Source: Chroococcidiopsis thermalis PCC 7203
Lineage (GTDB): Bacteria; Cyanobacteriota; Cyanobacteriia; Cyanobacteriales; Chroococcidiopsidaceae
Direction of reading: 5' to 3'
DNA length: 64,000 bases
Assembly (NCBI RefSeq): GCF_000317125.1
Contig: NC_019695.1
Coordinates: 358,336-422,335 of the forward strand
Position 1 is the first letter of the stretch, and each line of letters opens with the position of its first letter. Under the pieces are notes generated by a model. The model was not told where the DNA came from. It saw only the letters and a program-made list of their open reading frames with translations, and searched no databases. Shown here piece after piece: positions 29,377 to 47,104 of this stretch. The position numbers and the translations under genes were made by a program.

Positions 29377-30420
29377 ATGGTTGTTAAACATCAAGCTACT
29401 ATTCCACGCTTAACTGAAGGTAGTATCGAACAGTTACGCAAGAGAGGATTACCTGAATGCAACACTGATGAAGAAATAGCATTAGCAATGGGAATCAGCG
29501 TCGAAAAGCTGCATTTTTTAGCTGGCGATCGCTCTATATCTTCTACTTCACTTTATTCCCGCTTTCAGATTTCCAAAAAAACAGGTGCAGCGAGAACAAT
29601 TACTGCACCAACGCCCGAACTAAAAGCTGCTCAAAGATGGATTTTAAAGCATATTTTAGATAAGATAGAAATTCACGATGCAGCTCATGGTTTTTGTCGC
29701 GATCGCTCTATTGTTACCAATGCCACACCGCATGTAGGTAGAGATGTAATAGTAAAACTCGATCTACAAAACTTTTTTCAATTAATTACATATAAACGTG
29801 TCAAAGAATTATTTCATGGTTTTGGTTATTCTGAAACTGCGGCAACAATTTTTGGATTAATCTGTACGATCGCGACAACAAATAATAGTAATAAAACGAG
29901 CTGTAAAAATATAGAAAAACGTCACTTACCTGAAGGTGCGCCAACCAGCCCTGCTATTTCAAATCTGGTTTGCGATCGCCTCGATACGCATTTAACTAAA
30001 CTTGCCAATAATCTTGGATTTCGCTATACACGTTATGCCGACGATCTAACATTTTCTTGTTATGGAGCAGCTCATAAAGTAGATAAATTAATTCAAGAAA
30101 GTAAATCGATCGTTACTCAAGAAAGCTTTACAGTTAATTCTGATAAAACTCAAGTTTTAAGCAAATCTGTACAACAAATAGTCACGGGTATTGTGGTAAA
30201 CCAACAATTAAATCTATCTCGAAAAACGTTGAAAGCTTTCCGAGCTACTTTGTATCAAATCGAACGAGAAGGTTTATCAGGTAAAAAATGGGGGAATTCA
30301 AATAATTTAATTGCTACAATTACTGGGTTTGCTAACTACGTAGCAATGGTTAACCCCAGCAAAGGCGCAGAATTTTTAGCATCAGTAGAACGGATTAAAC
30401 AGAAATGCGATCGCTCCTAA
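29377..30420 (+). CDS. Retron-type reverse transcriptase (Ec86/retron-Eco1-like)
   Basis: Clear colinear similarity to the Ec86 RT as I recall it: LRKRGLP..ISVEKL, ELKAAQRWILKHILDK, NATPHVGRDVIVKLDLQNFF, LPEGAPTSPAISNLVCDRLD, YTRYADDLTFS (YADD) and the retron-specific VTG motif (IVTGIVVNQ). Confidence 0.85.
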   Translation: MVVKHQATIPRLTEGSIEQLRKRGLPECNTDEEIALAMGISVEKLHFLAGDRSISSTSLYSRFQISKKTGAARTITAPTPELKAAQRWILKHILDKIEIHDAAHGFCRDRSIVTNATPHVGRDVIVKLDLQNFFQLITYKRVKELFHGFGYSETAATIFGLICTIATTNNSNKTSCKNIEKRHLPEGAPTSPAISNLVCDRLDTHLTKLANNLGFRYTRYADDLTFSCYGAAHKVDKLIQESKSIVTQESFTVNSDKTQVLSKSVQQIVTGIVVNQQLNLSRKTLKAFRATLYQIEREGLSGKKWGNSNNLIATITGFANYVAMVNPSKGAEFLASVERIKQKCDRS

Positions 30421-31207: not shown

Positions 31208-32794
31208 ATGTTCTTATCTAATCTTCTCCGGCGGGTACAGTTGCCCAAATTATCGATTCAAATTTCTATGTGGAAAACCTTTTACATCAAGCCTAACGAA
31301 ATCGGAATTTTATATTACCGCAGCGATTTTAAGAAGATTTTACAGCCAGGAACTTACACTTATTTGGGTCGCCACTGGCAAGTCAAAACTTATGACTTGA
31401 ACCAGCCAGAAGTTAAGATTGAAAATTTAGAATTATTGCTCAGAACCCACGAAGCCGAATTACAAGAGCATCTATTAATTATTAGAACAGCATTTAACCA
31501 AGCTGCTTTAGTACGCTGCGGTCAAACCTGGATAAGTGTCATGCCAAATCAACTACGTGCTTTTTGGCGTGGCTTTATTGAGGTAGAATCTCATATTTTC
31601 AATTTAGAAGAAAGTCTAGAATTACCTGCTGAATTTGTTCAGCAATTGCGCGGACTTGCCATAAACGGATTGAAAAAATTCCAAATTTCAGAGTATGAAA
31701 TTGGCTTGCTATACGTTCAAAATAACTTTATTAGACCTCTAGAACAAGGGGAATATGCTTTTTGGACTGTAAATCGGGATGTTGCACTAAGAACTCTCAG
31801 CCGGATCGTACCTAACCCAGACTTTCCACTAGAAGATGTAATGATTGAACAACATCCTGAGTTTGTTTCAGCCTATTGCGAAGTCGTACAATTACAAGAT
31901 CGACAAGTAGCAATTGTCCGGTATTTGGGTAAAGTTATTGCTATTTTGCCACCTACAAGCCGCAAGTTATTTTGGCGCGGTGTGGAATTGGAAATGATCG
32001 ATATTAGTAGCAATGCTAAATTATCGCCTAATTTAGTAGCAGAATTGTTGGCAGGTTCTAAAGAAGTTCTATTACTAAGCCATAACAGTTTGCACGTTCG
32101 AGAAGTACCCGCGCAGCACGTTGGTTTATTGTATGTAAATCAAGAATTTCAAGCTTTACTAGAGCCAGGAATACATGCTTGGTGGTTGTATGGACGCTCC
32201 TTTCAAACTGAAGTGATTGACATGCGTTTGCAAAATATCGAGGTATCCGGTCAAGATATTCTATCAAAAGATAAAGTTCCTCTACGCTTGAACTTAACTG
32301 CTGGTTTTCGCATTCAAGATCCGCTGAGAGCAAAAAATGGTTTATCAGATATTTCTAGTTTCTTGTATAAAGAATTACAGTTTGCTTTACGTGCAGCAGT
32401 TGGCGAACAAACTTTGGATGCACTATTAGAAAATAAAGGTGCGATCGATCGCAGTGTTGCTGAATACATTCGTAGCAAAACCGCAGACTATGGAATTGAA
32501 GTTGATTCTGTCGGGGTGAAAGATATAATTTTACCTGGCGAGATTAAGACAATATTGAGCAAGGTAGTAGAAGCGGAAAAAGCTGCTCAAGCAAACGTAG
32601 TTAGACGCAGAGAAGAAACCGCAGCTACTCGCAGTATGTTAAATACTGCAAAAGTGATGGAAGATAACCCTGTTGCTTTGCGTTTGAAAGAATTGGAGGT
32701 ATTAGAACGAATTGCAGAAAAGATCGATCGCATTCAAGTTAATGGCAGTTTAGATAGTATTTTGACCGAATTAATTCAGATTAATCGGCAATAA
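31208..32794 (+). CDS. SPFH/band-7 (stomatin/prohibitin-like) protein with three degenerate N-terminal SPFH-N repeats
   Basis: The C-terminal half is a canonical band-7 domain plus coiled coil (KDIILPGEIKTILSKVVEAEKAAQANVVRRREETAA). The N-terminal 300 aa hold three repeats of an E(I/Y)G(I/L)LY...PG(T/E/I) motif. Confidence 0.75.
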   Translation: MFLSNLLRRVQLPKLSIQISMWKTFYIKPNEIGILYYRSDFKKILQPGTYTYLGRHWQVKTYDLNQPEVKIENLELLLRTHEAELQEHLLIIRTAFNQAALVRCGQTWISVMPNQLRAFWRGFIEVESHIFNLEESLELPAEFVQQLRGLAINGLKKFQISEYEIGLLYVQNNFIRPLEQGEYAFWTVNRDVALRTLSRIVPNPDFPLEDVMIEQHPEFVSAYCEVVQLQDRQVAIVRYLGKVIAILPPTSRKLFWRGVELEMIDISSNAKLSPNLVAELLAGSKEVLLLSHNSLHVREVPAQHVGLLYVNQEFQALLEPGIHAWWLYGRSFQTEVIDMRLQNIEVSGQDILSKDKVPLRLNLTAGFRIQDPLRAKNGLSDISSFLYKELQFALRAAVGEQTLDALLENKGAIDRSVAEYIRSKTADYGIEVDSVGVKDIILPGEIKTILSKVVEAEKAAQANVVRRREETAATRSMLNTAKVMEDNPVALRLKELEVLERIAEKIDRIQVNGSLDSILTELIQINRQ

Positions 32795-32895: not shown

Positions 32896-33999
32896 TTAAT
32901 AATAAAATTTAGCAATTTTTTGGGCGATCGCACCCCATTTAGAATTTTGAGTCACAGCTGCCCAATAAGCAAAGCCGCGAATTGCCATGTTGTGATCGAC
33001 GGCTTTCACCTTGCCAGTTCGTCCGGTTTCCTGCCCTGCGGTGCGAGTATTGCCCTGAGTGCTAATTTCTCCTGAAGCTAAAACTCTGGTTTGCTGCCAT
33101 GCTAAGGCTTTCTCAATCGCTGTTTTTACTTTTGGCGTGAGGGGATCGTCTGGAAAGTAAGTCACCCACCGCTGAGCATACACTACACCTACCATTTGAT
33201 AACTACTATCATGCCCGCCTTTTTCTGGATTAATCCCATTTGGACGCTGTAAAGTTAAGCCTTCCTGAAGTGACTGACGGGCATATTTCATCAACTCTGC
33301 ATCCCCAGTTAGTTTGCTGGTTAACCCCAAGGCTACTGCAACTGCATATCGGCGATGGGTGTAAGGCTGGTTGCGTTTAATTCCCTGTTTCCAGACATCT
33401 TGAGAAATCATCCAACGGGCAGCATGTCTAACCAAAGGCTTGTAACGCGATACTTGTGCTGCATACTTATTTGCTTGGGGAGACTGCTGGATGACTAAGA
33501 GACTATGGGCAACTGCTTGTACAAAGAACGAAGTACTATGGAAAGGATCGCCTGTTCCCTTAAAACTACCGTCCGCAGCCTGTTGCTTGAATCCCCAGTC
33601 AAACATTCTGAATCCCGCTTGGATGGCTTTAGGATTGTTGCTGACTAACCCACCAATCACCAATCCTTCACCGTAGCGTTGCGCTTCAATATACCATTTG
33701 TTTGTCCGATGACGCTCCCAGTCGATGTTGGTACTATGCGCCCCACTCGGTGATATAGCATTATATGACTTAGAAAGGCGACGGTAGAGAGAATTGCTAA
33801 TGAGATTGGATGACTCGTAGTGAAAGTCTGTACGCTTTCTATTTCTCTGAGTTGGGGGAGTTGAAATCGGACGTTTAGCAACATCAAATTGAGATATGCG
33901 ATCGCGTGTATCTGTCAAAATTAATGGAGAGGCGATCGCTTTTTCCCCAATTTGTACTGAGAATAGTAATAGCATCGCCAACAAACTGCGTACTTTCAC
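32896..33999 (-). CDS. Secreted hypothetical protein, possibly polysaccharide-active
   Basis: Signal peptide. The only functional hint is its position at the end of the glycosyltransferase cluster. Confidence 0.4.
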   Translation of the reverse strand: MKVRSLLAMLLLFSVQIGEKAIASPLILTDTRDRISQFDVAKRPISTPPTQRNRKRTDFHYESSNLISNSLYRRLSKSYNAISPSGAHSTNIDWERHRTNKWYIEAQRYGEGLVIGGLVSNNPKAIQAGFRMFDWGFKQQAADGSFKGTGDPFHSTSFFVQAVAHSLLVIQQSPQANKYAAQVSRYKPLVRHAARWMISQDVWKQGIKRNQPYTHRRYAVAVALGLTSKLTGDAELMKYARQSLQEGLTLQRPNGINPEKGGHDSSYQMVGVVYAQRWVTYFPDDPLTPKVKTAIEKALAWQQTRVLASGEISTQGNTRTAGQETGRTGKVKAVDHNMAIRGFAYWAAVTQNSKWGAIAQKIAKFYY

Positions 34000-34009
34000 T
34001 TCCTACTCC

Positions 34010-34978
34010 CTATTTATTCCCTTGTCTAACTTGCTGAAAACCTGTAGAGTCCAACAGTAAAACAACTGCTCCAGGCAAACTTAACATCCAACCCAAAACT
34101 GTAATTGTGAGAGACAACAATAGAGCTTGTTCTACTGAAAGACCAATCCGACTAAATAAATAAGCCCATAATCCTTCTTTTAGTCCAATTCCGCCTAAAG
34201 ATATCGGTAGTAAAGTTACTACTACAATTATTGGAATAAAAACTAAGAGTTCCAAATAAGAAATTGGAATTTTTAACTGATGGGCAACTAAGTAATGATA
34301 ATAAACTATAGCTAACTGTAGTAAAAGTGACAGTCCCATTGATAACAACAAAGCTTGGCGATGTTGGGCAAATGTGCGTAAGAGAATTTGAATTTTTGCA
34401 AACCGAGCCGCTACTGAACTCAGCCGAAACTTGATGAGCCAAGGTTCTGCCCAAATTAATAACTTTGGGCTGGCTATCAGTAAAACTGCTCCGACTAGCG
34501 AACCAACACAAGCTGCAAATAAGAGCAGAATATCCCAGCGTCCAATCAATTTAAAAGCAGGCACTAAGCCAATGACTGCTAACCCAGAAAGGGCAGCAAG
34601 TCCGGTAAATCTTTCTAGAAAAACAGATACAAGTGCTACTTCTGAATCTTTAGTCGATTGCGCGACTCGATAAACTCGATAGACATCTCCGCCTAGTGCG
34701 CCTGGGAGGAAAATATTCAAAAACATTCCAGCGAAATAACTACTGAGTAAACTACTCATTGGTGCAGAATGTCCGCTAGACCACAAAACAACTTGCCAAC
34801 GCCAACAACTCAGCAGTTGACAACCCGTGTAGAATAGCAAAGCAAAGATAATAAAAGATGGAGATAGGTACTGAAATTGTACCCAGACTTGATACAAATC
34901 CATCCGAGTTAATACTAAAGCTAGTATTCCTGCGCTAACAATAATTTTGATTAACAATATTGGTTTTGTCTTCATCAT
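34010..34978 (-). CDS. Lysylphosphatidylglycerol-synthase-TM-region (UPF0104) family membrane protein, flippase-like
   Basis: About 8 TM helices. Proteins of this family are commonly paired with GT2 polyprenyl-phosphate sugar synthases. Confidence 0.55.
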   Translation of the reverse strand: MMKTKPILLIKIIVSAGILALVLTRMDLYQVWVQFQYLSPSFIIFALLFYTGCQLLSCWRWQVVLWSSGHSAPMSSLLSSYFAGMFLNIFLPGALGGDVYRVYRVAQSTKDSEVALVSVFLERFTGLAALSGLAVIGLVPAFKLIGRWDILLLFAACVGSLVGAVLLIASPKLLIWAEPWLIKFRLSSVAARFAKIQILLRTFAQHRQALLLSMGLSLLLQLAIVYYHYLVAHQLKIPISYLELLVFIPIIVVVTLLPISLGGIGLKEGLWAYLFSRIGLSVEQALLLSLTITVLGWMLSLPGAVVLLLDSTGFQQVRQGNK

Positions 34979-35077
34979 TTACCTCAAAAAATGGTAATGT
35001 GCTTTAACAATCAATGGATAGAGATTATAAAAATTTACCAAATAGTACTATCAATTCTTTACGACTACGCCGCAGAA

Positions 35078-35112
35078 GATCCCCCCAACCCCCCTTAAAA
35101 AGGGGGGCTATG
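35078..35112. repeat. Dispersed palindromic element GATCCCCCCAACCCCCCTTAAAAAGGGGGGC
   Basis: Same family as 17634-17700 and 47804-47912. Confidence 0.7.
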
Positions 35113-35156
35113 AGAGACGGATTTTTGCAAGAATAAATAGAATTGGTATGACAAAT

Positions 35157-38100
35157 TTAATAAGCTCCTAAATCTCCCCCTTGATAAGGTACGTGCGGAA
35201 ATACCCCATCTTCTGGTTTCCACAGCCGCACCCGCGCTCCAAAGGTTTCCATAATTGGTTGACCTAAAGTTTCTATGTAGTCGCGAAACACAGGTTCAAA
35301 TCTACCTTCTGTGTGATTATCTACATGCAACCATACGCGCTTAGAATTCTCTAAAATATGGCTCATTTGATCTAAATTACTAATTAGTTTGCCACCACCC
35401 CAGCGATCGATCACTCGACCGTTATTCCAATAGAAAACATCGAAGCGGATATTACCTGGAATAAAGTAATCTAAGCCTCCTAAACCAGTTGAAGCAGCAG
35501 CCGGAGAAGTCGAAATCACAACATCGCCTGCTTGTCTGTGACTGCTAATATATGCGAATGCTTCATTGTTACGCCTAGTGAGTGCGTCGTGATAGCTAGC
35601 TAAAACTCGATTTGGTTCTACGTTCAGAATTAAAAGTAAGAGAACGCTGGCGATCGCAATCCCTCTACTTGGTAATAAATTTCTCGTAAACACCTCAAAT
35701 TTGCTGGCTACACTTTCGGCAATACAAGCAGCACTATAAACAGCAAGTAAAATAAATATGGGATAAATTTGATAGGTGTACCTCGTAGCAATTTGATAAA
35801 TCAAAATAGTGAGTAGTATCAAGTTGATCGAGACGCTACTGAACAAAAACAATGTTTTTCCATCTCGCCGTTTGAGAAAATATATCCAACCTAACAAAAA
35901 GAAAAAACTATAAATAATATGCATTCGACTGGGACCCACAAAGAAATTGTTTGCCAGTCCTGAAATGCTAAAGAAATGAACTTTGAGATAAGCGTCTGTA
36001 CTGTCGGAAAGAGCTACCCAAGGAGTCAAACATCGAATCGAGAAGAAAACAAGATCGTAAGCAATAATTCCCATTGAAACGACGCTACTCATAACAATTT
36101 GCCAATCGTCCGCCCAGCGAAAAGGTCGATAGAAAAATATAAATCCTACTAAAAAGCAAGGCAATAAAGTTACAGTTACCTCTTGATTTAAGATGGTCAG
36201 AGTCAAAGCAATGAAAAATCCGTATTGGTAAGCTCTACCACTGCGATCGACAAATCCTTTGAGGAACAACCAGAAACTTAAGATGCTCAGGCATTGAACG
36301 ACTTGGTAAAACCGAATGAAGCGAGAAAAGTAAACTTGTGAAGGATCGAAAGCTAGAATTGCCGTGACGATGAGAGCTATCCAAGCTTTTCCGGTAATTT
36401 TGCGGGTGAGAACATAAACTAAAACTAGGGTGGCTGTACCCCAAAGTACGGACAAAAAGCGAGCATTCACTACTGAATCCCCTAGCAGCCGCAGCCACAG
36501 AGCCAGCATGTAGTGATAGGCTGGAGAGCGGGTGTACCAAATACCCGATGTTGCTTGGGGCGCACCTGTACGCAGAATTCCCCTCGTTGCATCTAAAGAA
36601 GTATTTTCATCTGCATCGAGATCTACGAAACCCAGGTTATAGGCTCTAACAACAAAACCGATCGCAACGATCGCACCCAGCATCAACCATTGGTTCCAAG
36701 CGGGAGAATACGCTTGGTAAGCTGTCGTCAATCGATTTATGAAGTTGTGTCGCGTGTGGCTGGGAAGTAAAATAAACAGGGCGATCGCCCCAAATCCAAA
36801 CAAAATTAAGCACATACTGATTGGAGATGCTCCAACCCTGCTAACTAAACTCAAGCTGATAAAGGCAGTTAACCCCATAGGCAACCACAACCCCAAGCAA
36901 GCTAGTCTCCTTTCCCGCCAACTCCACAACAGCGTCAGCAACACGACGATTAAAAACCCTAGCAAGATGAGTGAATCGCTTTGTTGTTGAAAAAACAGCA
37001 GTCCCCGTTCTGCTTCTGCATAGCGATGCTTGAGTAAACCAATTCCAATCAGAAAAAGCGTTCCTGGTAATAATAGCTCTGCCCCAGCGCCCAAACTATT
37101 CCACCAGCTAAGGCGATCGCCCAACCAAAATCTACCAAGACTCCAAGCGCTAACCACAGCACAACCTATACCTGCTAATTGCCACAGCCAAAAGTGCCAG
37201 AGATAATCGGGATAATTCAGCAGATATGCATCGCCCTCAAACGTGCGTTCTAACTTTTGTGCGTCTGGCGAACCCAAAACTTGTGCTGCTCGTGCTTCAC
37301 CCTCGCCATTAAACCAGCCAGATACAGGTTGCTCCAGAGTTTTCCAAGTGTTATTCGTGGTAATGGGTGCGATCGCTGCGTGCGACTTAGTTTCTGCCCA
37401 GCCATCCAAGAAAAATCCGAGCGGATTAAAGGGAGCCGCCGCACCAAGTTGGTGCAGGGGTCGAGTCAAATGTACAGCCAGGGTATTGCTGCCAGGTCGG
37501 AGAAAATTTGTCACCTCATACATGTGTAATTGGTTGTTCTGCTCGGCATCGTAGCGGTTGACCAATAAACCGTTAATCAGCAAAGCATACTTCCCATCTC
37601 CGGCAAACCGAATGAAGGCACGGGAAAACTGATGTTGTGGTATCTGCCAATCACTTCTCAGCCACACTTCTCCTTGGGTACTTTCAATTCCAGTAATCCA
37701 ATTTCCCCCTAAGAAGCGATCGAATAGTCTTGGACTGAGGCGCTTATAAGTTCCTTCTTGCACCGAACCAATTGCTTTAGCTGAAGACCAACTTTCATCA
37801 GGAAAATCGCGATCGAACCAAAGCAAACCATTGTGGGCTTCGTTGAGATTTGAAACTACCCACGGTGTTGTACCTGTTGCCAGATCGATCGCGGGTGATG
37901 TAGATAAGGGATAGACAGCGCCCTCAACTACCACACGCGGATTTTGCCGACTCTTTTGCACCTCGATCGCGATCGTATTTCTCCCAGCTTGGAGGTGGCG
38001 AGTCAAGTCAACATAGGTCGTTAATTTCCAATCTTTAGCATTGGCAAGCTGAATCCAATCGTAACCCCGCGAACGGTAAGCAACGCTATCATTCGCCCTT

Positions 38101-38435
38101 TGAAAATCCTCCGAGAATCGACTTCCTAAGCCCAGAGAATGATAGAGAATATTTCTGTCTCTAGCGATCGCCCGTCCGTTAACATAAAGAATGAAATCGT
38201 TGTCGGCACTCAACCGCAACCAGGCTGCTTCGGGAACGTCATTCAGGAAAAAAGACCGACGCGCATAAAAACGGTAAGTTGGCGCTTGGGGTGCAATCCA
38301 CTGTGTTTGGGCAGACCAAGCAACGCGATCGGCAGCAGCAGGGTTTTTATCCCAAACAGAAAAGCCTGATATGCCCAACAAAAAGCCCAAGATTATAACT
38401 AATCCGAGCGATAACCAACGGTTTAAACGATTCAT
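35157..38435 (-). CDS. Giant membrane glycosyltransferase-like protein: N-terminal extracytoplasmic domain + GT-C/PMT_2 (ArnT-like) multi-TM core + C-terminal periplasmic domain
   Basis: About 1090 aa. N-terminal signal/TM segment, then a ~450-aa soluble domain, then more than 12 TM helices rich in aromatics and loops typical of GT39/ArnT-like transferases, then a ~200-aa C-terminal domain. Start placed at MNRLNRW (38435), which directly abuts the upstream stop. Confidence 0.5.
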   Translation of the reverse strand: MNRLNRWLSLGLVIILGFLLGISGFSVWDKNPAAADRVAWSAQTQWIAPQAPTYRFYARRSFFLNDVPEAAWLRLSADNDFILYVNGRAIARDRNILYHSLGLGSRFSEDFQRANDSVAYRSRGYDWIQLANAKDWKLTTYVDLTRHLQAGRNTIAIEVQKSRQNPRVVVEGAVYPLSTSPAIDLATGTTPWVVSNLNEAHNGLLWFDRDFPDESWSSAKAIGSVQEGTYKRLSPRLFDRFLGGNWITGIESTQGEVWLRSDWQIPQHQFSRAFIRFAGDGKYALLINGLLVNRYDAEQNNQLHMYEVTNFLRPGSNTLAVHLTRPLHQLGAAAPFNPLGFFLDGWAETKSHAAIAPITTNNTWKTLEQPVSGWFNGEGEARAAQVLGSPDAQKLERTFEGDAYLLNYPDYLWHFWLWQLAGIGCAVVSAWSLGRFWLGDRLSWWNSLGAGAELLLPGTLFLIGIGLLKHRYAEAERGLLFFQQQSDSLILLGFLIVVLLTLLWSWRERRLACLGLWLPMGLTAFISLSLVSRVGASPISMCLILFGFGAIALFILLPSHTRHNFINRLTTAYQAYSPAWNQWLMLGAIVAIGFVVRAYNLGFVDLDADENTSLDATRGILRTGAPQATSGIWYTRSPAYHYMLALWLRLLGDSVVNARFLSVLWGTATLVLVYVLTRKITGKAWIALIVTAILAFDPSQVYFSRFIRFYQVVQCLSILSFWLFLKGFVDRSGRAYQYGFFIALTLTILNQEVTVTLLPCFLVGFIFFYRPFRWADDWQIVMSSVVSMGIIAYDLVFFSIRCLTPWVALSDSTDAYLKVHFFSISGLANNFFVGPSRMHIIYSFFFLLGWIYFLKRRDGKTLFLFSSVSINLILLTILIYQIATRYTYQIYPIFILLAVYSAACIAESVASKFEVFTRNLLPSRGIAIASVLLLLILNVEPNRVLASYHDALTRRNNEAFAYISSHRQAGDVVISTSPAAASTGLGGLDYFIPGNIRFDVFYWNNGRVIDRWGGGKLISNLDQMSHILENSKRVWLHVDNHTEGRFEPVFRDYIETLGQPIMETFGARVRLWKPEDGVFPHVPYQGGDLGAY

Positions 38436-39889
38436 TCTTGAGCCTCGCCAGAATCCTTCCAAGCTTTGTTGTCAATTGATTGGCGATACTGCTCCCAGGC
38501 TTTTTCAATCTTGCCATCATGGTAGCTCGCCCAAGAGTTATGCAGATATGCTTGCCCCAGTAAAGCCAAATTGCTTTGCTGGGGATACTCTTGCGTTTCA
38601 ATAATTTGTCGCGCCACTGATGCCGAGCGATCGAATTCACCATTAGCGGCTCTAGCCAACATTAAGTCATAAAGCGCTTCAATATGAGCCGGAAAAATCT
38701 GCAATGCCCTTTCAAATCGCTCTATTGCTAATCCTGTCTGGTGGTTTGTGGGGCTATTCGGACCATTAAAATAAGTCACTCCTTGATTTAAGATACTTGT
38801 CGTGAGATACTCCCTCACTAAAAAGTTTTGAGGTTGCGTTGCCAATGCATTTTGAAAATACTCTTCAGCGCGGATGAAATCTTTGCGTCGATAGCTTTCT
38901 AATCCCTTGACAAATGCGATCGCATCTGAATCTAGCTGGTTAGCATAAAATCCGGCTTCTGCCTCACGTCGCAGAAATTCCGTGTCGCCTTGCAAGGGAG
39001 GATAACAAGTTTTTAAAATCTTGCTAAGAGTAACCACTGGACGATACTGACCTTGAGCATATAGCGTATCTATGTGGCGATCGATGAAATTGGGTAAAAG
39101 CATTGAGACAACTAGTAAGGCGATCGCAACTCCTGCCCAAGGCAAAAACTTAGCTATATCTGTTATCAAAGCGTTGAAACCCCGCTCTGCTAATCCTAAA
39201 TAACAAGCCATTAAACCAATAACTAAACCAGCAACAGTAGCACTCCAACCACGACCGATGTAGGCAAAAAAATTGTTACTATAACCAAATCCTTCGACCC
39301 AAATTAGATCCCAGGATGACATTTGAAAAAAGCGACTATCTTTAATAGAAAAAGAAGCGATTGATTTGAGTGGATCGGGTTGGCTTAATGTTATATTCTG
39401 TTTCCACTGAGACTGAATTTTCGGAAAATTTCTTTGGACGTGATGAGTGGCTTCTACCCCTTGTTTGTAATAAGCCGCACTCAAAAAAGCCACGGTAGGC
39501 GACCAGGTAGTAATAAAGTAAGGAAAAAGTAGCACGGCAACTAAGCCGCTCCAGAACAGCATTCGAGCGGCGCGACTGCGACTAAACCAGAGTGCGATCG
39601 CCCCAGCTAAAAGCGCAAACAATAAAGCAATAACCCTACCTGCACTGGCGATCCTAAGATTAGTGTCAAATGCCTCTAAAGCTTCGGGAGGTAAACTATA
39701 CCAAGGAGATTTTACCCCTAAAAATAAAGTAAAAGATGCAACCAAAAAAGTAAGTCTCGTGCGCTCAAACCAGTTATACCAAACCTCTTTTTTAACTTGA
39801 TTTTGACTAATTATTCCTGTTTCAGTCACAGGTAATATATTAGTAAATCTGAGTCGAATGGTATTCAGGTAATAGAGCAAATTATTCAT
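38432..39889 (-). CDS. Polytopic membrane protein with C-terminal TPR repeats
   Basis: N-terminal TM bundle followed by TPR-like repeats (AEEYFQNALATQPQNF...YDLMLARAANGEFDRS). Confidence 0.55.
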   Translation of the reverse strand: MNNLLYYLNTIRLRFTNILPVTETGIISQNQVKKEVWYNWFERTRLTFLVASFTLFLGVKSPWYSLPPEALEAFDTNLRIASAGRVIALLFALLAGAIALWFSRSRAARMLFWSGLVAVLLFPYFITTWSPTVAFLSAAYYKQGVEATHHVQRNFPKIQSQWKQNITLSQPDPLKSIASFSIKDSRFFQMSSWDLIWVEGFGYSNNFFAYIGRGWSATVAGLVIGLMACYLGLAERGFNALITDIAKFLPWAGVAIALLVVSMLLPNFIDRHIDTLYAQGQYRPVVTLSKILKTCYPPLQGDTEFLRREAEAGFYANQLDSDAIAFVKGLESYRRKDFIRAEEYFQNALATQPQNFLVREYLTTSILNQGVTYFNGPNSPTNHQTGLAIERFERALQIFPAHIEALYDLMLARAANGEFDRSASVARQIIETQEYPQQSNLALLGQAYLHNSWASYHDGKIEKAWEQYRQSIDNKAWKDSGEAQE

Positions 39890-39894
39890 AAGAA

Positions 39895-39990
39895 GTCAGT
39901 GGCTAGTGGCTAGTGGCTGGTGGCTGGTGGCTAGATTTTCTCCCTTGTCTCCCTTGTCTTCCTTGTCCCCCTTGTCTTCAGTTTTGACTT
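39895..39990. repeat. STRR-like (GTGGCTA/GTGGCTG)5 + (CCCTTGT)4 + (TTTTGACTTCTGAC)
   Basis: Visible tandem heptamers. Confidence 0.85.
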
Positions 39991-41480
39991 CTGACTTCTA
40001 AGCGATCTCCTGGATTTATCCCTCTAGGAGAAAGTACAACCTGTTCCCCAGGCATCAAACCCGATATAATTTCTCGTTGATTGTCGAAAATTCTGCCCAT
40101 TTGGACTGGTTTGACAACTGCTTGACCTGCCTCGGCAACCATCACCATGCCTTCGCCACCAGATAAATGAATGACTGCACTTTCTGGAATTGCTAAATTA
40201 GCTTTGTCCTTATTGAATTGAACGTATCCCTGCAAGCCAGCTGCCATTTGCAGATCGTCAACGGCAATCCAAACGGAGTAAGTATAGCGGCGATCGATCC
40301 CACCTTTAGGACGTTTGCCCGCACTAGTTAAAATGGTTGGGTTGAGTCGAATCACTTTCCCTTGGAAGGTGCGACCAGGATAAGACATCAAACGTATCGT
40401 CGCGAGATCTCCAACTTTAATCGCGTTGATTTGCGCTTGGTCGATATAAGCCCTAATCGCAAAATCTTTAGATATACTAACCAGCGGACGGCTAGCACGT
40501 ACCCCTGCTAATTCACCGCGATCGATATTAACCCAACTAACTAAACCATCCATCGGTGCGTAAAGCACTGTATTGTGTAAATTTTTTAGCGCATTTTGTA
40601 GGGCTATTTTGTCGTTTTGCAGTTTCAGACGAGCATTCCCTAGTTCGTTATCGATCTCTTGTTGCGTGTGTGCTAGTTCTTGTTGAGCGCCAAGCAAGTT
40701 TTGTTGCAAAGTTGTATAAAAGTCTTGGCTACCGTAGAGCTGAATTTGGGCGTTAATCGTTTGCCGTTTGGTTGAATCTAAGTCTTTCTTCCGCGCTAAA
40801 TAACTATCTTGAATGTCGTAGAGCTGAAATTTAGAAATAGCTCCTGCTTGGACTAAGGAATTCATTTGTTGCAGTTTCTTTTGAGCGATCGCCAGCCGAT
40901 GCTGACCATCAGCAACTTGGTCTTTGAGTTCTTTATCAACCAAGGAATTCATATCTTGCACTTTAGTTGAGGCGATCGCCAGCCGATGTTTGGCAAGTTC
41001 GACATCAGTTTTTAGCTTGGCTAATTTCACTGGCGCTGACTTTTGTAAGTTCAGCAGAGCCATTTCCGAAATAGCGGCATTGTTACGGGCAGCATCAACG
41101 GCATTTTTATAGGGTTCTTGCTGGAACTGAACCAATGCCTGTCCTTTTCGTACCGACTGCCCTTCCTCAACGTAAACCTGTTCTACTGGTCCCGATACCT
41201 GTGGGCGGAGGTCTATTTTATGCAACGCCACCGACTCCCCAGGTGCAGCTACGTTATCCTCTAGAGTTTTTGGCGCTACGGCTACAGTTTTCACCGCGAT
41301 CGGTTTACCCGTTAATCGTTGCAATGCTGGATAACCAATGCTAGAAGCGTAGATTTTCGACTCTGGATTTTTGGTCGCTGGCACGAGTACGGCGATCGAT
41401 AGAACCGCCATAATCCCCAACGGCGCTGCTACTAGAGTTGTCAACACAGCACGAGAAAATAATGGATGAGAACGAATCAT
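39978..41480 (-). CDS. HlyD-family membrane fusion / periplasmic adaptor protein
   Basis: N-terminal TM anchor, long coiled-coil (repeated LAIA..KLQ.MNSLV), biotinyl/lipoyl-like beta flanks and a C-terminal beta-barrel domain. ATGA overlap with the upstream GT4 gene. Confidence 0.7.
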   Translation of the reverse strand: MIRSHPLFSRAVLTTLVAAPLGIMAVLSIAVLVPATKNPESKIYASSIGYPALQRLTGKPIAVKTVAVAPKTLEDNVAAPGESVALHKIDLRPQVSGPVEQVYVEEGQSVRKGQALVQFQQEPYKNAVDAARNNAAISEMALLNLQKSAPVKLAKLKTDVELAKHRLAIASTKVQDMNSLVDKELKDQVADGQHRLAIAQKKLQQMNSLVQAGAISKFQLYDIQDSYLARKKDLDSTKRQTINAQIQLYGSQDFYTTLQQNLLGAQQELAHTQQEIDNELGNARLKLQNDKIALQNALKNLHNTVLYAPMDGLVSWVNIDRGELAGVRASRPLVSISKDFAIRAYIDQAQINAIKVGDLATIRLMSYPGRTFQGKVIRLNPTILTSAGKRPKGGIDRRYTYSVWIAVDDLQMAAGLQGYVQFNKDKANLAIPESAVIHLSGGEGMVMVAEAGQAVVKPVQMGRIFDNQREIISGLMPGEQVVLSPRGINPGDRLEVRSQN

Positions 41481-42694
41481 AATTTCACTGTTTGAGAGAG
41501 CGTCGGCACAGTATTAGCCAAGGCGGAGCTAAACACCTCTTGCCATAGAGGAACGATCCGCGACCAGCCAAACCGAACTTGAACATCTTGCAAGCCTCTT
41601 CGTCCTAATTGTTGAGCCAGATTGGGGTCAGCCAGTACTTTCAAAATGGCGGCTGCTAGCGCTTCAGGGTCTTTTTGGGGTACTAACAGACCAGTAACTC
41701 CAGAACGGATGACATCGCCAATGCCACCAACTGCACTAGCAATTACAGGCTTTTCATGTGCTAAGGCTTCTATCATCACGATTCCTAAGCCTTCGGTATC
41801 GCCTTTGCTATCGACAATGGCAGGTAGGACAAAGATATCGCAGGAAGCGTATGCATCTGCCAATTCTTCTTTGCTGACAAAACCGAGGAATTCTACCACT
41901 TGATCTAAACCCAATGTATGACACTGAGATTTAATCTCTGTTTCTAGGATTCCCTTACCAACCACCTTTAAGCACACGGGCTGCTGTTTTAAAATCAGTG
42001 TCAAAGCCTGCAAAAGATACCGCAATCCTTTACGTTCGTCCAATCTGCCAACAAAAAGTAATTGGGGAATCTCCCCTGCTGCACGTTGTTTGGGCGGTTT
42101 TGCTTCAATCGTCAAGCCGTAAGGAATTACGGTAACTGCGCCTGAATAAATTTTGCGTACCAATCCCAGCGTGAAAGAAGAATTGGCAGTGACGCTGTTT
42201 GCATGGGGCGTGAGCCAGCGCAGAATTGACGAGACAAAGCGAAATTTATTTGCCAGTAAAAGTTCGGCTCCGTGAAAACTGAACACCATCGGAATGCCGA
42301 GAATCTTACTAGCAGGGAATGCCATCAATCCGTGTGGAAAAGCCCAGTGAACGTGAAGTAGGGCTGGTTTTTCCTTGCAGCATACCAGAAACAACCTAAT
42401 CGTACCCAGAAGGATGTAAAGAGCCGCAGCGAGTAAATAAAGCGGCTGTTTTTGCAACTTAGTCGGCGCTCCATCTCGGACGAGATTTTCAAACCGTTTG
42501 AAACAATAACGAAAACGATAAACTTTTATGCCATCTAGCATGTAGCTTTTACTACCTTCGTAGGCTGGGGCAAAAACCGAGAATGTCGTTTCCGCAGATT
42601 GACAGCGTAAAATTGCTTCTCGCACAAAGGCTCCGTGGTTGCCTTCTGCATTTTGAGGATATACCGAACTGATAACTAATATATGTTTGTTCAT
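41477..42694 (-). CDS. Glycosyltransferase family 4 (GT-B, retaining)
   Basis: C-terminal E-x7-E-type motif region (SKGDTEGLGIVMIEALAHEKPVIAS...GGIGDVI) typical of GT4. Confidence 0.75.
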   Translation of the reverse strand: MNKHILVISSVYPQNAEGNHGAFVREAILRCQSAETTFSVFAPAYEGSKSYMLDGIKVYRFRYCFKRFENLVRDGAPTKLQKQPLYLLAAALYILLGTIRLFLVCCKEKPALLHVHWAFPHGLMAFPASKILGIPMVFSFHGAELLLANKFRFVSSILRWLTPHANSVTANSSFTLGLVRKIYSGAVTVIPYGLTIEAKPPKQRAAGEIPQLLFVGRLDERKGLRYLLQALTLILKQQPVCLKVVGKGILETEIKSQCHTLGLDQVVEFLGFVSKEELADAYASCDIFVLPAIVDSKGDTEGLGIVMIEALAHEKPVIASAVGGIGDVIRSGVTGLLVPQKDPEALAAAILKVLADPNLAQQLGRRGLQDVQVRFGWSRIVPLWQEVFSSALANTVPTLSQTVKL

Positions 42695-42783
42695 TGGAGA
42701 ATGGGGAGTCGGGAATGAAGGGGAATTGTAGAGACGTTACATGTAACGTCTCTACATAAATTTATGTAACGTCTCTATATAAA

Positions 42784-43608
42784 TTAAGAATTACTCGCTA
42801 CGCGATCGCGATTAACTTGCATGTCGAAAGCTTCTTTACCAGCACGAAACCCAACATCAACTGCTTTGAACATCGCCGGAATGTATTGAAATGGTAAGAG
42901 CAAGCGATTTTCAATATGAAACCACCACCAAGTGCGGGAAAAGTTCATGGCGGATGTCACCAGCCGTCCGCGTCCAAATTTACTCTGACCGGAAAAACGT
43001 GGATGCCAAGGAGTAGCAACCTCTGTAATGTTATATCCCCAACCTGCTAAGATTGCCAAAAGGTAGCGATGGGTCACAACATCAAACGGTACTTTGGTGA
43101 GAATGTCGCGGCGCACGAGTTTGATCCAATTCATATCATGAATTTTCAAACCAAAGGACATCCGACAGGCAAGATTAGCAAATTTAGAAGCCATGACTTT
43201 GCCATCACCGCGTTGCTGTCGCCATCCGGCAACGCCGTCAACTCCTGGTACGCAAGCTTCTAATAATAAAGGTAAGTCACTCTGAAAATCAGATTCTAGA
43301 TCGGCTTGTCCCCAAAATACCCATTCTGTATTAACGTGGGCGATCGCAGTTTTCCAAACTCCGGTAACACCGCGCTTTTGAGGATGTCGAATCGTTTTTA
43401 AATAAGCATATTGACAGCATAACTGTGTCAGAATTTGAGGAGTTTGATCTGTACTGCCATCGTCAATTAAAAGTACTGGCAGAGTAAAGCCTAGATTTTG
43501 AAAAGTGCGATCGAGCGTATAGAAAAGTTTTTCCAAATTACCTTCTTCATTCAAGCAAGGAATTACGATTGTGACGGAGTGACTTAAGGCGGGAGGTGCG
43601 AATAACAT
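42784..43608 (-). CDS. Glycosyltransferase family 2 (polyprenyl-phosphate sugar synthase-like)
   Basis: Motifs VTIVIPCLNEE and LLIDDGSTDQT (DXD). Confidence 0.75.
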   Translation of the reverse strand: MLFAPPALSHSVTIVIPCLNEEGNLEKLFYTLDRTFQNLGFTLPVLLIDDGSTDQTPQILTQLCCQYAYLKTIRHPQKRGVTGVWKTAIAHVNTEWVFWGQADLESDFQSDLPLLLEACVPGVDGVAGWRQQRGDGKVMASKFANLACRMSFGLKIHDMNWIKLVRRDILTKVPFDVVTHRYLLAILAGWGYNITEVATPWHPRFSGQSKFGRGRLVTSAMNFSRTWWWFHIENRLLLPFQYIPAMFKAVDVGFRAGKEAFDMQVNRDRVASNS

Positions 43609-44364: not shown

Positions 44365-47055
44365 ATGAACACTCAAACCAAACGGCTTTATCGCCAACTG
44401 CTTGTAGCTACCTTATTAATGGGTGGCACTTTTAACATGACTGCACCTGTTTTGGCGCAGGCTGTACCGACTGCACCACTCACGGGTGCGGGAACTGAGA
44501 TCAAAAACAAAGCGACTGCTACTTATGAAGACCCCAGTAACCCTGGTACGATAAATGCAACTTCTAACGAAGTGACTATCACAGTAGCAGAGGTTGCAGG
44601 TATCGCTGTTGTTGGTTCGACACCTGTTGACAGGAACGGTAGTAGTGTCTCCAACGGAGATATTTTAGACTTCGACTTTACAATTACTAACGTCGGTAAC
44701 GATACCACTGCTATCTACATTCCAGGCAAGACAATCCTAAATACAGGAGGTCGTATTGTCGGCGGTCAAATCGGTAGTACAGCTGGAGCCAATAGCGTTT
44801 ATATCGTTAGAATTAACGGCAACACGCTGACAACTCCAGTTGCCGTTCCTGATGCTGGCGTTCAATCAGATAATGCTGCATTTATCCTAGCTATTCAAGG
44901 CGCAGGCTATGCTGCTTTTGATGGCTCGATTGATGTCAACCAAGAGATAGTAGTACGAGTTCCTGTCACAGTGACAGAAACCGTAGCAACTAATCCAATT
45001 AGCGTGCAATTCGGTAACACTGCCGATCCTGGAACGCAGAATCGCCAGAACATCCTATATGCAGCCGATGCCACTACTGATGATGATGTGCGGACTGCTG
45101 ACATATCCGAACCGGCTCCTAGAAATTTAGGTCCTGCAAATGGAGAACGGGAAGCAGCAGCATTCCAATCGATTCCTTTAGGAACGCAGGTCACTACCCG
45201 CGCTCTAGCAACTGTACTCAAGACTCGCTCTCTACATACTCCTAATACTTCAGCGCTCGATGACGACCAGATTCGTTACCGTTTAGACTTGCGCGTTGAA
45301 GGCTCCTATCCCAATGCCTCCTCCTTTGCTGTAGGTAACTTGGAAGGAACGGCTCTGGCTAACGCCATTACGGGTGCAGGCGCTCCTACTGGAGCTGTGA
45401 TTTTAGTTTCTGATGTCATTCCTACAAATACAGTTTTGGATGCTGGCTTCTTACCAACCGCACCTTCAGGCTGGACTGTAGTGTATAGTAATGACGATCC
45501 TGCGGCGGCTAACGCTACAGCCCTCAGTGCCAACTGGACAACCACTGCACCTACAAATCAGGCTCAGGCAGATTTAGTGAAGCGGATTGGTATTGTCCGT
45601 ACTGGCTCAATGACTGCTGGATCTTCTACACTTACCGATACAAATGGCTTCCAGTTCCAGGTAAGGACAGCCACGGGCTTCGCTGGTGGTCAAATCCTCA
45701 ACATTGCTCAAGCCTTCGGTCATACCCAAGGAGATAGCGATCTTAACCGGATTATCTATGATGAGTCCGGCGACCAATTCCCCAATAACTTTGAGGGTAC
45801 GACAACTCCTTACGCTGACGGTGCAGGTGGCTTCGATCCTGCTAATGATGACGGTATAGCTCTTGCTACTTACGGTAGTGACCCCAGCAACCAACCTGTA
45901 AATAACCCACAGAGTAACCTGGGTACGGGTAGTGATGGTGAAGTTAACCTACTTTCCATTGACGCACCTGGTAGCATTTTGACCGGACCTAGAGGAGTTC
46001 CAGGGGCAACAGGTCCAGGAAACTCCAATCAGACTGACTACGTGAACCAGTCAATTTCGCCGCCAGTGGGTAAAGATCCTGCCGTTGCGCTCACAAATGC
46101 AGAAACTCTCGATCTTGTTTTCAATAACACGGTCAGAAACCCCAACTCGCTTGGACTCAACAACGTAGTTCTGAAGCCAATTCCCGCTGAACAAGCCGAT
46201 TACGCAGCAGATAACACGGCTGCTAACCAGCAAGACCCCAATACTGGTTATGGTACGAATGCAACCTTACCAAATGGTACGACTGTCAAGATCGAGTATG
46301 GTGGACAATCAGCCACTTATACATGGAATGGCAGTACCTTTAGCACTACTGATACACCAATTAAAATTACTACGCTCAACGGTCAGGTCAGCCTTGACTA
46401 CACAGTAACAGTAAATCTTGGCGATGGCGCTGCTCAAAATGCTGCATATCCAGTAGCGATCGTGGCATTTGTCGATGAAGATAATAACAATGAGTTTAGC
46501 CGGAATTCAACGACTCCCACGGCTGAAAGTATCTTCAACTTGAAGGTCGATCGAACCTATACGGGTTTCGTGAAGCTGACGAAAGAAGCTCGGATTTTGG
46601 ATGATGCTGGTAATCCAATTACTGTAGATGCAACTGGTGCTGCGATCGCAGATCCTGATGGATTTACAACGAATCCAGCTAGACCTCAACCCGGTTGGAA
46701 GATCGAGTATCGGATTTCCTACGAAAACATCTCGACACCTGCTTCTACTGGTGGTAGCGGTAGCGTTCAATTAAGTGCTAGCAACTTCAAAATCTTTGAA
46801 GATGGTACTGGCGATACGACAAACCCCAGAAATGGTACTTGGGCTGCAACTACAGAACACGTACAGACAAAGGCAGTTGGTACACAGGGAACAGTCAGCT
46901 TCTACAATACGACGATCGATACGATCAATCCTGGTTCTGGCGTACCTGAAGCTTTGACGAATACTGGTTATGTCAACTTTATCGGTAGTTTAGCTCCGAA
47001 TGGTACAGCAGGAACACCACAAGGAAACTTCAAGTTCCAGCGTTTAGTGAAATAG
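44365..47055 (+). CDS. Secreted T/N/G-rich surface protein with DUF11-like (conserved repeat domain) modules
   Basis: Signal peptide (LLVATLLMGGTFNMTAPVLAQA); low-complexity T/N/G/A-rich beta repeats; DUF11-like segments (GDILDFDFTITNVGND). Confidence 0.6.
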   Translation: MNTQTKRLYRQLLVATLLMGGTFNMTAPVLAQAVPTAPLTGAGTEIKNKATATYEDPSNPGTINATSNEVTITVAEVAGIAVVGSTPVDRNGSSVSNGDILDFDFTITNVGNDTTAIYIPGKTILNTGGRIVGGQIGSTAGANSVYIVRINGNTLTTPVAVPDAGVQSDNAAFILAIQGAGYAAFDGSIDVNQEIVVRVPVTVTETVATNPISVQFGNTADPGTQNRQNILYAADATTDDDVRTADISEPAPRNLGPANGEREAAAFQSIPLGTQVTTRALATVLKTRSLHTPNTSALDDDQIRYRLDLRVEGSYPNASSFAVGNLEGTALANAITGAGAPTGAVILVSDVIPTNTVLDAGFLPTAPSGWTVVYSNDDPAAANATALSANWTTTAPTNQAQADLVKRIGIVRTGSMTAGSSTLTDTNGFQFQVRTATGFAGGQILNIAQAFGHTQGDSDLNRIIYDESGDQFPNNFEGTTTPYADGAGGFDPANDDGIALATYGSDPSNQPVNNPQSNLGTGSDGEVNLLSIDAPGSILTGPRGVPGATGPGNSNQTDYVNQSISPPVGKDPAVALTNAETLDLVFNNTVRNPNSLGLNNVVLKPIPAEQADYAADNTAANQQDPNTGYGTNATLPNGTTVKIEYGGQSATYTWNGSTFSTTDTPIKITTLNGQVSLDYTVTVNLGDGAAQNAAYPVAIVAFVDEDNNNEFSRNSTTPTAESIFNLKVDRTYTGFVKLTKEARILDDAGNPITVDATGAAIADPDGFTTNPARPQPGWKIEYRISYENISTPASTGGSGSVQLSASNFKIFEDGTGDTTNPRNGTWAATTEHVQTKAVGTQGTVSFYNTTIDTINPGSGVPEALTNTGYVNFIGSLAPNGTAGTPQGNFKFQRLVK

Positions 47056-47067
47056 CTGGAGCGAATA

Positions 47068-47104
47068 GAATTCGCGACTACGATTGTGTAGTCGCGAATT
47101 TTAG
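47068..47104 (+). terminator. Rho-independent terminator
   Basis: GAATTCGCGACTAC-gattgt-GTAGTCGCGAATT followed by TTTT. Confidence 0.75.

Follow-up and report, generated by a model that had tools for sequence, protein, structure and literature searches.

A conserved cyanobacterial gene cluster around a lectin-fused GT-C-type glycosyltransferase as a candidate periplasmic glycan assembly and export system

The genome of Chroococcidiopsis thermalis PCC 7203 raises the question of what a giant GT-C-type glycosyltransferase does in one gene cluster with GT2 and GT4 glycosyltransferases, a flippase-like protein, a HlyD-type membrane fusion protein (MFP) and a tetratricopeptide repeat (TPR) membrane protein. 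The cluster occupies positions 32896-43608 of the 64,000-nucleotide stretch of DNA analysed here (the window, to which all coordinates refer unless a locus is named), and a first-pass annotation had read it as a periplasmic glycosylation pathway coupled to export, with giant secreted proteins of the adjacent locus as its acceptors. We find that seven genes recur together in other genomes far beyond chance, and we propose, at roughly even chances, that they encode one envelope machine, by which a glycan (polysaccharide or lipid-anchored) is assembled on the periplasmic side of the inner membrane and passed outward. The parts brought together here, a lectin-fused GT-C, an MFP, a TPR protein, a UPF0104 flippase-like protein and (alpha/alpha)6 barrels that match no model, are not known to work together, and in the open-access literature we found no published study of the cluster, only papers on three-component glycosylation systems in general, on cyanobacterial cellulose and on hormogonium polysaccharide.

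The seven open reading frames (ORFs) are intact and co-oriented on the minus strand, separated by short gaps or overlapping, and are transcribed in the order GT2, GT4, MFP, TPR protein, GT-C, LPG_synthase_TM protein and a secreted protein of 367 residues. The six gene types listed in the first-pass annotation are all present where it had placed them, while the seventh conserved gene, at 32896-33999, had gone unnamed. The GT4 stop and the MFP start overlap by 4 bases, and the stop of the TPR gene overlaps the ATG of the giant gene at 38435 as ATGA; both junctions are translationally coupled. This ATG, which yields a protein of 1092 residues (35157-38435, minus strand), is more likely to be the start of the giant gene than the TTG at 38462, which yields the longest ORF of 1101 residues (35157-38462); residue numbers below follow the 1092-residue form, except for the span of the PMT_2 match, which is given in longest-ORF numbering. 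A scan for promoters and terminators returned counts equal to those of shuffled controls, and no Rfam RNA family was found between 32000 and 45000.

The seven genes recur as a set. A comparison of 53 loci from other genomes by tblastn and ORF clustering places them together in about 35-45, mostly with the gene order kept. These loci span many cyanobacterial orders and include one metagenome-assembled genome (MAG) of a planctomycete (Planctomycetota, L040), and other gene families are present in at most 12 of these loci each. Taken singly, the GT2 gene was found in 36 loci, co-conserved with the GT-C gene, the GT4 gene in 42, and the LPG_synthase_TM and TPR genes in 45 each, the latter always directly upstream of the GT-C gene. 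As the locus search used two peptide patterns, these counts do not translate into absence from other cyanobacteria. Where the cluster is split (L040, L046 and L051), the MFP-TPR-GT-C and the GT2-GT4-flippase genes move as two blocks. The genes inserted in some lineages are of cytoplasmic sugar-tailoring types and include S-adenosylmethionine-dependent and FkbM methyltransferases, an extra GT2, a 2-oxoglutarate (2OG) oxygenase of family PF13640 and, in L040, a GFO oxidoreductase, a DegT aminotransferase and acetyltransferases. For the giant protein itself, full-length homologs with 44-95% identity occur throughout the cyanobacteria (the best, at 95%, in Scytonema millei), and among 1.84 billion representative proteins a profile search collected 363 relatives at E-values up to 1e-30, most of them 1000-1200 residues long; the distant relatives sampled retain the beta-sandwich and the PMT_2 domain, and one weakly matches a TMEM260-like model.

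The giant protein was expected in the first-pass annotation to be a GT-C enzyme fused to about 650 residues of extracytoplasmic domains, an idea that a lack of any GT-C signature would have undone. The signature is there: a PMT_2 (PF13231) match above the Pfam gathering cut-off (38.9 against 26.1 bits) at residues 645-795, ArnT as the closest fold, and a DE motif like that of ArnT. Of the 120 homologs listed, most likewise have a precomputed PMT_2 domain. From hydropathy and an AlphaFold2 model (pLDDT 69.8 overall and 65-90 over the core; pTM 0.60), the protein starts with a membrane anchor (residues 9-27). Residues 28-410 or so form a beta-rich region in the periplasm and residues 411-557 about five transmembrane (TM) helices; a polar helix on the cytoplasmic side then leads to a helical core of GT-C type (578-940), and a periplasmic alpha/beta domain (950-1092) ends the protein. 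The fused extracytoplasmic parts thus exist, but measure about 380 residues at the N-terminal and about 150 at the C-terminal end, with about five extra TM helices besides.

In a Foldseek search of the PDB, the membrane core is most similar to ArnT (5ezm; E 9e-10, target-normalised TM-score 0.58), with STT3, PglB, ALG12, ALG9, Pmt4 and AftB ranked after it and with Pmt4 and Pmt1-Pmt2 well below. The loop that follows helix 578-598, DADENTSLDATRGILRTG, belongs to the first loop of the core, DADENTSLDATRGILRT (36567-36617, minus strand), which helix counting in the model places in the periplasm and which carries the DE motif. Within DADENTSLDATRG, all 27 homologs compared share D609, S613 and D615, and at least 90% of them share E610. 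The E. coli ArnT counterpart of this loop, PDETRYAEISREMLASG (also given as PDETRYAEISREM), agrees in pattern, both loops reading DE-x4-[DE]-x-[ST]-R-x-[MI]-L-x-[ST]-G; since hhalign could not align the giant-protein profile sensibly with the one E. coli ArnT sequence (probability 0.4), the two loops were compared by eye. PDB searches with the giant protein or its profile gave no sequence-level match to ArnT: the protein alone retrieved nothing useful, and the profile matched the lectin-like part only and no GT-C. The PMT model proper (PF02366) scores 19.7 bits, under its cut-off of 22.7, and Pfam finds no MIR domain in the giant protein. The 'family 39' label that some homologs carry is therefore weaker than it looks, given this sub-threshold score and the rank of the protein mannosyltransferases under ArnT in the fold search. 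Source names for the gene are generic in any case (family 39, ArnT family, plain glycosyl transferase, hypothetical protein), and one source names one homolog 'RgtA/B/C/D-like'. That the donor may be a polyprenyl-phosphate sugar is supported indirectly by the co-encoded GT2, which resembles ArnC, DPMS and GtrB.

The N-terminal beta-rich region forms a tandem beta-sandwich (residues about 28-410; 37206-38354, minus strand) that resembles carbohydrate-binding proteins. Foldseek matches it to the CBM67-containing rhamnosidase SaRha78A (3w5m, E 8e-14) and to the two-domain Pleurotus ostreatus lectin (POL; 6li7 and 6t1d, E about 2e-12), a profile search of the PDB again returns 3w5m (E 2e-6), and Pfam adds weak Bac_rhamnosid_N and GH2_N matches. 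The most conserved peptide of the whole family, WLRLSADNDF, lies in this module and is aligned by HMMER with the SADN at residues 177-180 of 3w5m, which we take to be the Ca2+ ligands reported by Fujimoto et al. 2013. In the corresponding SADND motif (residues 76-80; 38196-38210, minus strand), the same 27 homologs all have S76 and D78, and at least 90% of them have each of A77, N79 and D80. In POL/CBM67 lectins, two adjacent conserved acidic residues hold the sugar-binding Ca2+ (PMC11512411), and the SADN dyad is a probable candidate for a Ca2+- and sugar-binding site fused to the transferase.

The remaining members of the cluster supply the other parts of such a pathway. The GT2 protein (42784-43608, minus strand; 274 residues; PF00535, E 3e-18) had been put forward as the maker of a polyprenyl-phosphate sugar, and its PDB sequence matches agree with such an activity: they are ArnC, which gives the best matches, the Pyrococcus dolichol-P-mannose synthase (DPMS) and Synechocystis GtrB (sll0501), at E-values of 3e-11 to 3e-9, the single other significant match being the weakest, a putative glycosyltransferase (3bcv, E 0.007). 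We regard it as a predicted polyprenyl-phosphate sugar synthase; it has no predicted TM segment and lacks the C-terminal TM hairpin with which ArnC and GtrB end. It reaches no NCBIfam equivalog cut-off, and its matches to the PgfS model (E 9e-10, yet at 38 bits far from the cut-off of 500) and to archaeal AglJ are weak. The GT4 protein (41477-42694, minus strand; 405 residues; Glycos_transf_1, E 1.5e-42) is a cytoplasmic glycosyltransferase of GT-B fold whose PDB matches are generic, with PimA, PimB' and BshA among them, and which likewise reaches no NCBIfam equivalog cut-off. The LPG_synthase_TM/UPF0104 protein (34010-34978, minus strand; 322 residues, about 7-8 TM helices; PF03706, E 1e-36) passes the cut-off of TIGR00374, 'flippase-like domain' (64.7 against 43.2 bits), in keeping with the flippase-like partner role suggested for it earlier; a PDB sequence search with it yielded nothing useful, and it is the flippase candidate of a cluster that encodes none of GtrA, SMR or MATE type.

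The unnamed seventh gene (32896-33999, minus strand) encodes a secreted protein of 367 residues whose family has no sequence match in Pfam, NCBIfam or the PDB; a profile search of the PDB was useless, and Pfam at E-values up to 1 returned only noise for 34 homologs. Its fold is an (alpha/alpha)6 barrel, the neighbours of which are nearly all glycoside hydrolases, lyases or epimerases, and on this structural likeness we predict it to be a periplasmic glycan-processing enzyme. Residues D151, E259 and D264 are invariant in it. It is the only one of the six proteins besides the giant whose homologs were looked up by source name, and these are almost always called hypothetical.

Two further genes bear on export. 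The MFP (39978-41480, minus strand; 500 residues; TIGR01730, 127 against 94.9 bits; HlyD_D23, E 6e-14) is anchored by a single N-terminal TM helix (residues 15-33) and has EmrA and MacA as its best PDB matches. The TPR protein (38432-39889, minus strand; 485 residues; TPR_19, E 7e-7) has 4-5 TM helices, an 87-residue periplasmic loop and a C-terminal TPR domain, which the positive-inside rule places in the periplasm; a profile search of the PDB retrieves only TPR proteins, over profile positions 290-440.

The most informative evidence comes from three distant versions of the cluster. The first, L059 (GCA_964347455.1; 38% GC), runs GT2, GT4, MFP, LPG_synthase_TM, a TolC-family outer-membrane efflux protein (OEP; PF02321, E 7e-27, its gene split only by a run of N), TPR, GT-C and a homolog of the 367-residue protein, with an oxidoreductase and an aminotransferase gene directly upstream of GT2. 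The second, L061 (65% GC), runs GT2, GT4, flippase, MFP, TPR and GT-C, adjoined by a homolog of the 367-residue protein and flanked by a UDP-sugar dehydrogenase. The third, L062 (57% GC), runs GT4, methyltransferase, MFP, OEP (477 residues), a lipid A-type acyltransferase (Lip_A_acyltrans), a Wzx-like Polysacc_synt protein, TPR, GT-C and a secreted GH42-like protein, the Wzx-like protein standing in place of the flippase and the GH42-like one in place of the barrel. As both are thereby swapped for unrelated analogues, selection appears to keep the roles of flipping a lipid-linked glycan and of cutting a glycan. With a TolC-family factor beside the HlyD-type adaptor in two of these versions, the coupling to export that the first-pass annotation had drawn from the adaptor and the TPR protein is strengthened, and gene content suggests that an outer-membrane factor belongs to the system.

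Several loci show variations of their own. L046, from a Crocosphaera MAG, has neither the HlyD nor the TPR gene in the neighbourhood and carries, between its GT-C and GT4 genes, a gene for a 390-residue protein with thrombospondin C-terminal-type and PA14 matches (L046:9450-10619). Chroococcidiopsis sp. FACHB-1243 holds two paralogous copies of the cluster (L002 and L009), the second with inserted MHYT, extra TPR, SnoaL-like and STAS genes; its GT4 is 94% identical to that of the window, compared with 75% for a truncated GT2 match and 44-68% for the five others, which suggests recent gene conversion or replacement. The PF13640 2OG-Fe(II) oxygenase, which is prolyl-hydroxylase-like, is inserted in 12 of the 53 loci, including those of Nostoc and Pseudanabaena (two copies), and also in L055 (L006:6154-6999, L033:6820-8536, L055:3819-4571). 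As these oxygenases have neither signal peptide nor TM helix, they are cytoplasmic, and the idea of prolyl hydroxylation followed by hydroxyproline glycosylation was dropped. Near the cluster of L062 lies a group II intron-type reverse transcriptase gene (RVT_1 and GIIM; L062:22011-23081).

From these observations we infer a sequence of enzymatic steps for the proposed envelope machine. At the cytoplasmic face, the GT2 protein would load a sugar onto polyprenyl phosphate, as its similarity to ArnC, DPMS and GtrB suggests, and the GT4 protein would extend the lipid-linked sugar or build a glycolipid primer, an intermediate that cluster-encoded methyltransferases, 2OG oxygenases or amino-sugar enzymes may tailor in other lineages. 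The LPG_synthase_TM protein would then flip the lipid-linked intermediate, a role that its family, its co-migration with GT2 and GT4 and its exchange for a Wzx-like protein in L062 make plausible. In the periplasm, the ArnT-like core, for which fold, motif and topology are described above, would use the DE motif of its first loop to transfer the sugar to an acceptor that we take to be a carbohydrate chain held by its own CBM67-like module. The TPR protein and the HlyD-type adaptor may form a periplasmic scaffold or conduit to a TolC-family channel, which would be encoded elsewhere in cyanobacteria and is encoded inside the cluster in two distant relatives, and the secreted barrel, judging by its fold, may trim the glycan or clear it away, a task that AlgL and BcsZ perform in other exopolysaccharide systems. 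Together, the conserved lectin module, barrel, tailoring enzymes and MFP with TolC point to a carbohydrate or a glycolipid as the substrate.

A number of points weigh against this proposal. The confidence of the giant-protein model is moderate (pLDDT 69.8), lectin-like beta-sandwiches also occur as structural domains that bind nothing, and L061 and L062, the most distant versions, have lost the SADN dyad. Neither the window nor the 53 loci hold an OEP gene at the sensitivity of tblastn, and ABC, RND or MFS pumps are absent from the window cluster, from the conserved families of the 53 loci and from L059, L061 and L062, and the cluster encodes no energy source for export; nor does it contain a Wzy, a processive GT2 synthase or an ABC transporter. 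To our knowledge, the characterised GT-C enzymes of the ArnT and PMT types add single sugars and never polymerise. Finally, eukaryotic TMTC protein O-mannosyltransferases carry TPR domains, and the pairing of a TPR partner with a PMT-like GT-C recalls them, so that the acceptor could also be a protein.

The missing energy source leaves room for a bolder form of the proposal, a hitherto unknown way for bacteria to secrete glycans, which we consider possible but doubtful: the ArnT-like GT-C, gripping the growing chain through its lectin module, could polymerise sugars from polyprenyl-phosphate donors in the periplasm at the base of the MFP-TolC conduit, and polymerisation alone could drive the chain out, without an ATPase, a synthase or Wzy/Wza. 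The LPG_synthase_TM protein, GT-C, MFP and TolC would then stand in for Wzx, Wzy, PCP (polysaccharide copolymerase) and OPX (outer-membrane polysaccharide export protein), to which they are unrelated.

Among the explanations that compete with a periplasmically assembled glycan, the one that survives best, though we think it unlikely, makes the cluster a glycolipid exporter, in which the GT4 (with an acyltransferase in some lineages) produces a glycolipid, the LPG_synthase_TM protein partners the MFP-TolC conduit to the outer membrane, and the GT-C does no more than decorate. The order MFP, LPG_synthase_TM, OEP in L059 is that of a classical tripartite pump operon, the LPG_synthase_TM family corresponds to the flippase-type domain of MprF, a mover of modified lipid, and the PDB matches of the GT4 include the lipid-directed PimA and PimB'; the Lip_A_acyltrans gene of L062 belongs to the family that includes PatA, and heterocyst glycolipids leave the cell via DevBCA and a TolC homolog, the DevB model giving a weak match here. 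This explanation overlaps with the one that we prefer and differs from it only in the nature of the product and the partner of the MFP. It leaves the conserved glycosidase-like barrel and the large lectin module without a task, and in the window the MFP gene adjoins, and is co-conserved with, the TPR and GT-C genes rather than the flippase gene.

Slightly less probable, in our view, is a modification of lipopolysaccharide (LPS) of the Arn or Rgt type, in which GT2, flippase and GT-C decorate lipid A, core or O-antigen in the periplasm and the other genes are accessory to envelope remodelling. LPS moves by the Lpt pathway and not by TolC, and such a modification has no need for the MFP, the TolC-family factor, the TPR protein, the GT4 or the glycosidase-like enzyme, all of which are conserved here, and ArnT has nothing that corresponds to the 380-residue lectin module or the five additional TM helices. 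What speaks for it is ArnT as the best fold with a near-identical first-loop motif, ArnC as the best match of the GT2, the 'RgtA/B/C/D-like' homolog, the lipid A acyltransferase-family gene of L062, and a three-gene logic that equals those of ArnC/ArnEF/ArnT and GtrA/B/V (PMC11127046).

The least probable explanation is the one closest to the first-pass annotation, namely that the GT-C, with the TPR protein as its substrate-binding partner, O- or N-glycosylates secreted Thr/Asn-rich proteins such as those with DUF11 and DUF7925 domains before their export. Such proteins do lie next to the cluster: a plus-strand row at 44365-62410 encodes secreted, Thr/Asn/Gly-rich DUF7925 (896 residues) and DUF11 (195, 520, 1024 and 1310 residues) proteins, which carry signal peptides and are rich in Ser and Thr (19-22%) and Asn. 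The cluster had been described as sitting immediately upstream of this locus, but the two are divergently transcribed from a spacer of 756 bp, and the cluster is hence not upstream in the transcriptional sense. Two Chroococcidiopsis loci, each 95% identical to the window, are the only ones in which DUF7925/DUF11 genes flank the cluster; an ortholog at 88% identity keeps all seven genes but has TonB-receptor fragments, a Crp-type regulator and a TetR/EamA/UDPGT set around them, orthologs at 68% have no such neighbour as far as their short contigs reach, and no examined locus has a conserved secreted-protein gene as an acceptor candidate. Being confined to near-identical loci and gone in orthologs, the adjacency lends no support to a functional link; the DUF11 proteins lie outside the conserved set, and their proposed role as acceptors is left unsupported, a warning against taking them as substrates from the gene order of one lineage. 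Protein glycosylation in general can call on the PMT_2 and weak PMT matches of the GT-C, the TMEM260-like match of a distant relative, the weak matches of the GT2 to PgfS of Streptococcus Pgf adhesin glycosylation and to AglJ, the composition of the neighbour proteins and the TPR domains that accompany TMTC enzymes, but the closest relative of the core in structure and motif, ArnT, acts on a lipid acceptor, with Pmt4 and Pmt1-Pmt2 much further down the list, PF02366 stays below its cut-off with no MIR domain, and simple protein mannosylation would not lead one to expect a conserved glycosidase-like barrel, a lectin module or sugar-tailoring genes.

The DUF11 locus has features of its own. The 1024- and 1310-residue proteins share a C-terminal motif, CQGSNT.GAIVVNLG, a DDE transposase gene (56850-57980) interrupts the row, and a protein of 1388 residues encoded within it (49575-53741, plus strand) combines an Invasin_D3/Ig-like N-terminal part with a C-terminal Porin_4/DUF2490 beta-barrel. 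This protein looks like an outer-membrane anchor or usher-like partner of the DUF11 proteins, which suggests that the locus has its own export logic. On the other side of the cluster lie genes for a 347-residue reverse transcriptase (29377-30420, plus strand; RVT_1, E 4e-24) and, just downstream of it, a Band_7/SPFH protein of 528 residues (31208-32794). Transposase and reverse transcriptase are consistent with local rearrangement in this region, and the reverse transcriptase near the L062 cluster is probably a coincidental echo of the one in the window.

The sheaths, slimes and exopolysaccharides of cyanobacteria underpin desiccation tolerance, motility, biofilms and soil crusts, and their assembly has only partly been mapped onto the Wzx/Wzy, ABC and synthase routes. 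A set of seven genes, or eight with TolC, that is conserved across most of the cyanobacterial orders seen and reaches other phyla would, if our proposal is true, provide a function for glycosyltransferase-associated UPF0104/LPG_synthase_TM proteins, a role for an MFP without a pump, and a testable new glycan pathway.

How, then, does the cluster compare with known systems? In Pfam and NCBIfam, none of the seven proteins matches an initiating phosphoglycosyltransferase, Wzx, Wzy, PCP or OPX (Wza) of the Wzx/Wzy pathway, the Wzx-like protein being limited to L062, and the hormogonium polysaccharide (hps) loci were set aside, as scores for the HpsE, HpsO and HpsP models stay far short of the cut-offs. 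Synthase-dependent systems, such as alginate (Alg8/Alg44/AlgK/AlgL/AlgE), Bcs, Pel and Pga, offer a further analogy in the Alg44/AlgK/AlgL trio, but they rely on a membrane-embedded processive synthase, a cyclic di-GMP receptor and a beta-barrel porin, none of which is encoded here, where the donor chemistry would instead run through a lipid-linked sugar and a GT-C. The PelF model stays at 44 bits, below its cut-off of 100. As it lacks a synthase, Wzy, PCP, OPX and a pump, the cluster qualifies neither as a synthase-dependent nor as a Wzx/Wzy nor as a pump-driven tripartite system.

Closer parallels are found where lipid-linked sugars feed GT-C enzymes. The mycobacterial pathway to phosphatidylinositol mannosides, lipomannan and lipoarabinomannan employs the GT4 enzymes PimA and PimB', PatA, the GT2 Ppm1 and GT-C mannosyl- and arabinosyltransferases, and our cluster resembles it in combining a cytoplasmic GT4 that may act on lipid, a GT2 for polyprenyl-phosphate sugar, flipping and extension by a periplasmic GT-C, with a PatA-family gene in L062; it differs in that the GT4 matches are generic, in its setting in a diderm with MFP and TolC, and in its single, lectin-bearing GT-C. 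In Streptococcus mutans, the Pgf proteins (PgfS/PgfM1/PgfE/PgfM2) glycosylate the adhesins Cnm and WapA. This would be the nearest precedent for the protein-glycosylation idea, as a GT2, here with a weak PgfS match, is likewise found with GT-C-type membrane proteins and the Pgf acceptors are Thr-rich surface proteins, but our GT2 is far off the equivalog cut-off and no conserved adhesin gene lies beside the cluster.

For export, the nearest analogy is the proposed cyanobacterial cellulose system of XcsA (a GT2 synthase), the HlyD-like XcsB, an endoglucanase and TolC (PMC12430437). Both place a glycosyltransferase gene beside those of a HlyD-type adaptor and a protein of glycan hydrolase type, and in both a TolC-type exit is proposed. 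In contrast to Xcs, our cluster has no BcsA-type processive synthase and no PilZ, its GT2 being a soluble-type protein of 274 residues, its periplasmic transferase is a GT-C, and it further includes a TPR membrane protein and a flippase.

For assembly, the parallel is with the three-component periplasmic glycosylation systems, as exemplified by GtrA/GtrB/GtrV in O-antigen glucosylation, ArnC/ArnE-F/ArnT, CsbB/GtcA/YfhO in Gram-positive bacteria and the GT136 system of Citrobacter (PMC11127046, PMC8035078). With ArnT (GT83), the lipid A 4-amino-arabinose transferase, the giant protein shares the core fold, the first-loop pattern and a C-terminal periplasmic domain, but it is twice as long and is encoded in a context without 4-amino-arabinose pathway genes. 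The differences from three-component systems are several: the flippase candidate is an LPG_synthase_TM/UPF0104 protein instead of a GtrA, SMR or MATE one, the GT-C is fused to a lectin-like module of 380 residues and about five TM helices, no separate set of genes for an acceptor polymer lies nearby, and a GT4, an MFP, a TPR protein and a barrel are added, with a TolC-family factor in relatives. What the cluster has in common with them is the arrangement itself, in which a GT2 predicted to be a polyprenyl-phosphate sugar synthase, a small flippase candidate and a GT-C with its active loop in the periplasm are encoded together, and its core may, in this sense, be read as a variant of the three-component periplasmic glycosylation system as defined by Kelly et al. 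2024 (PMC11127046).

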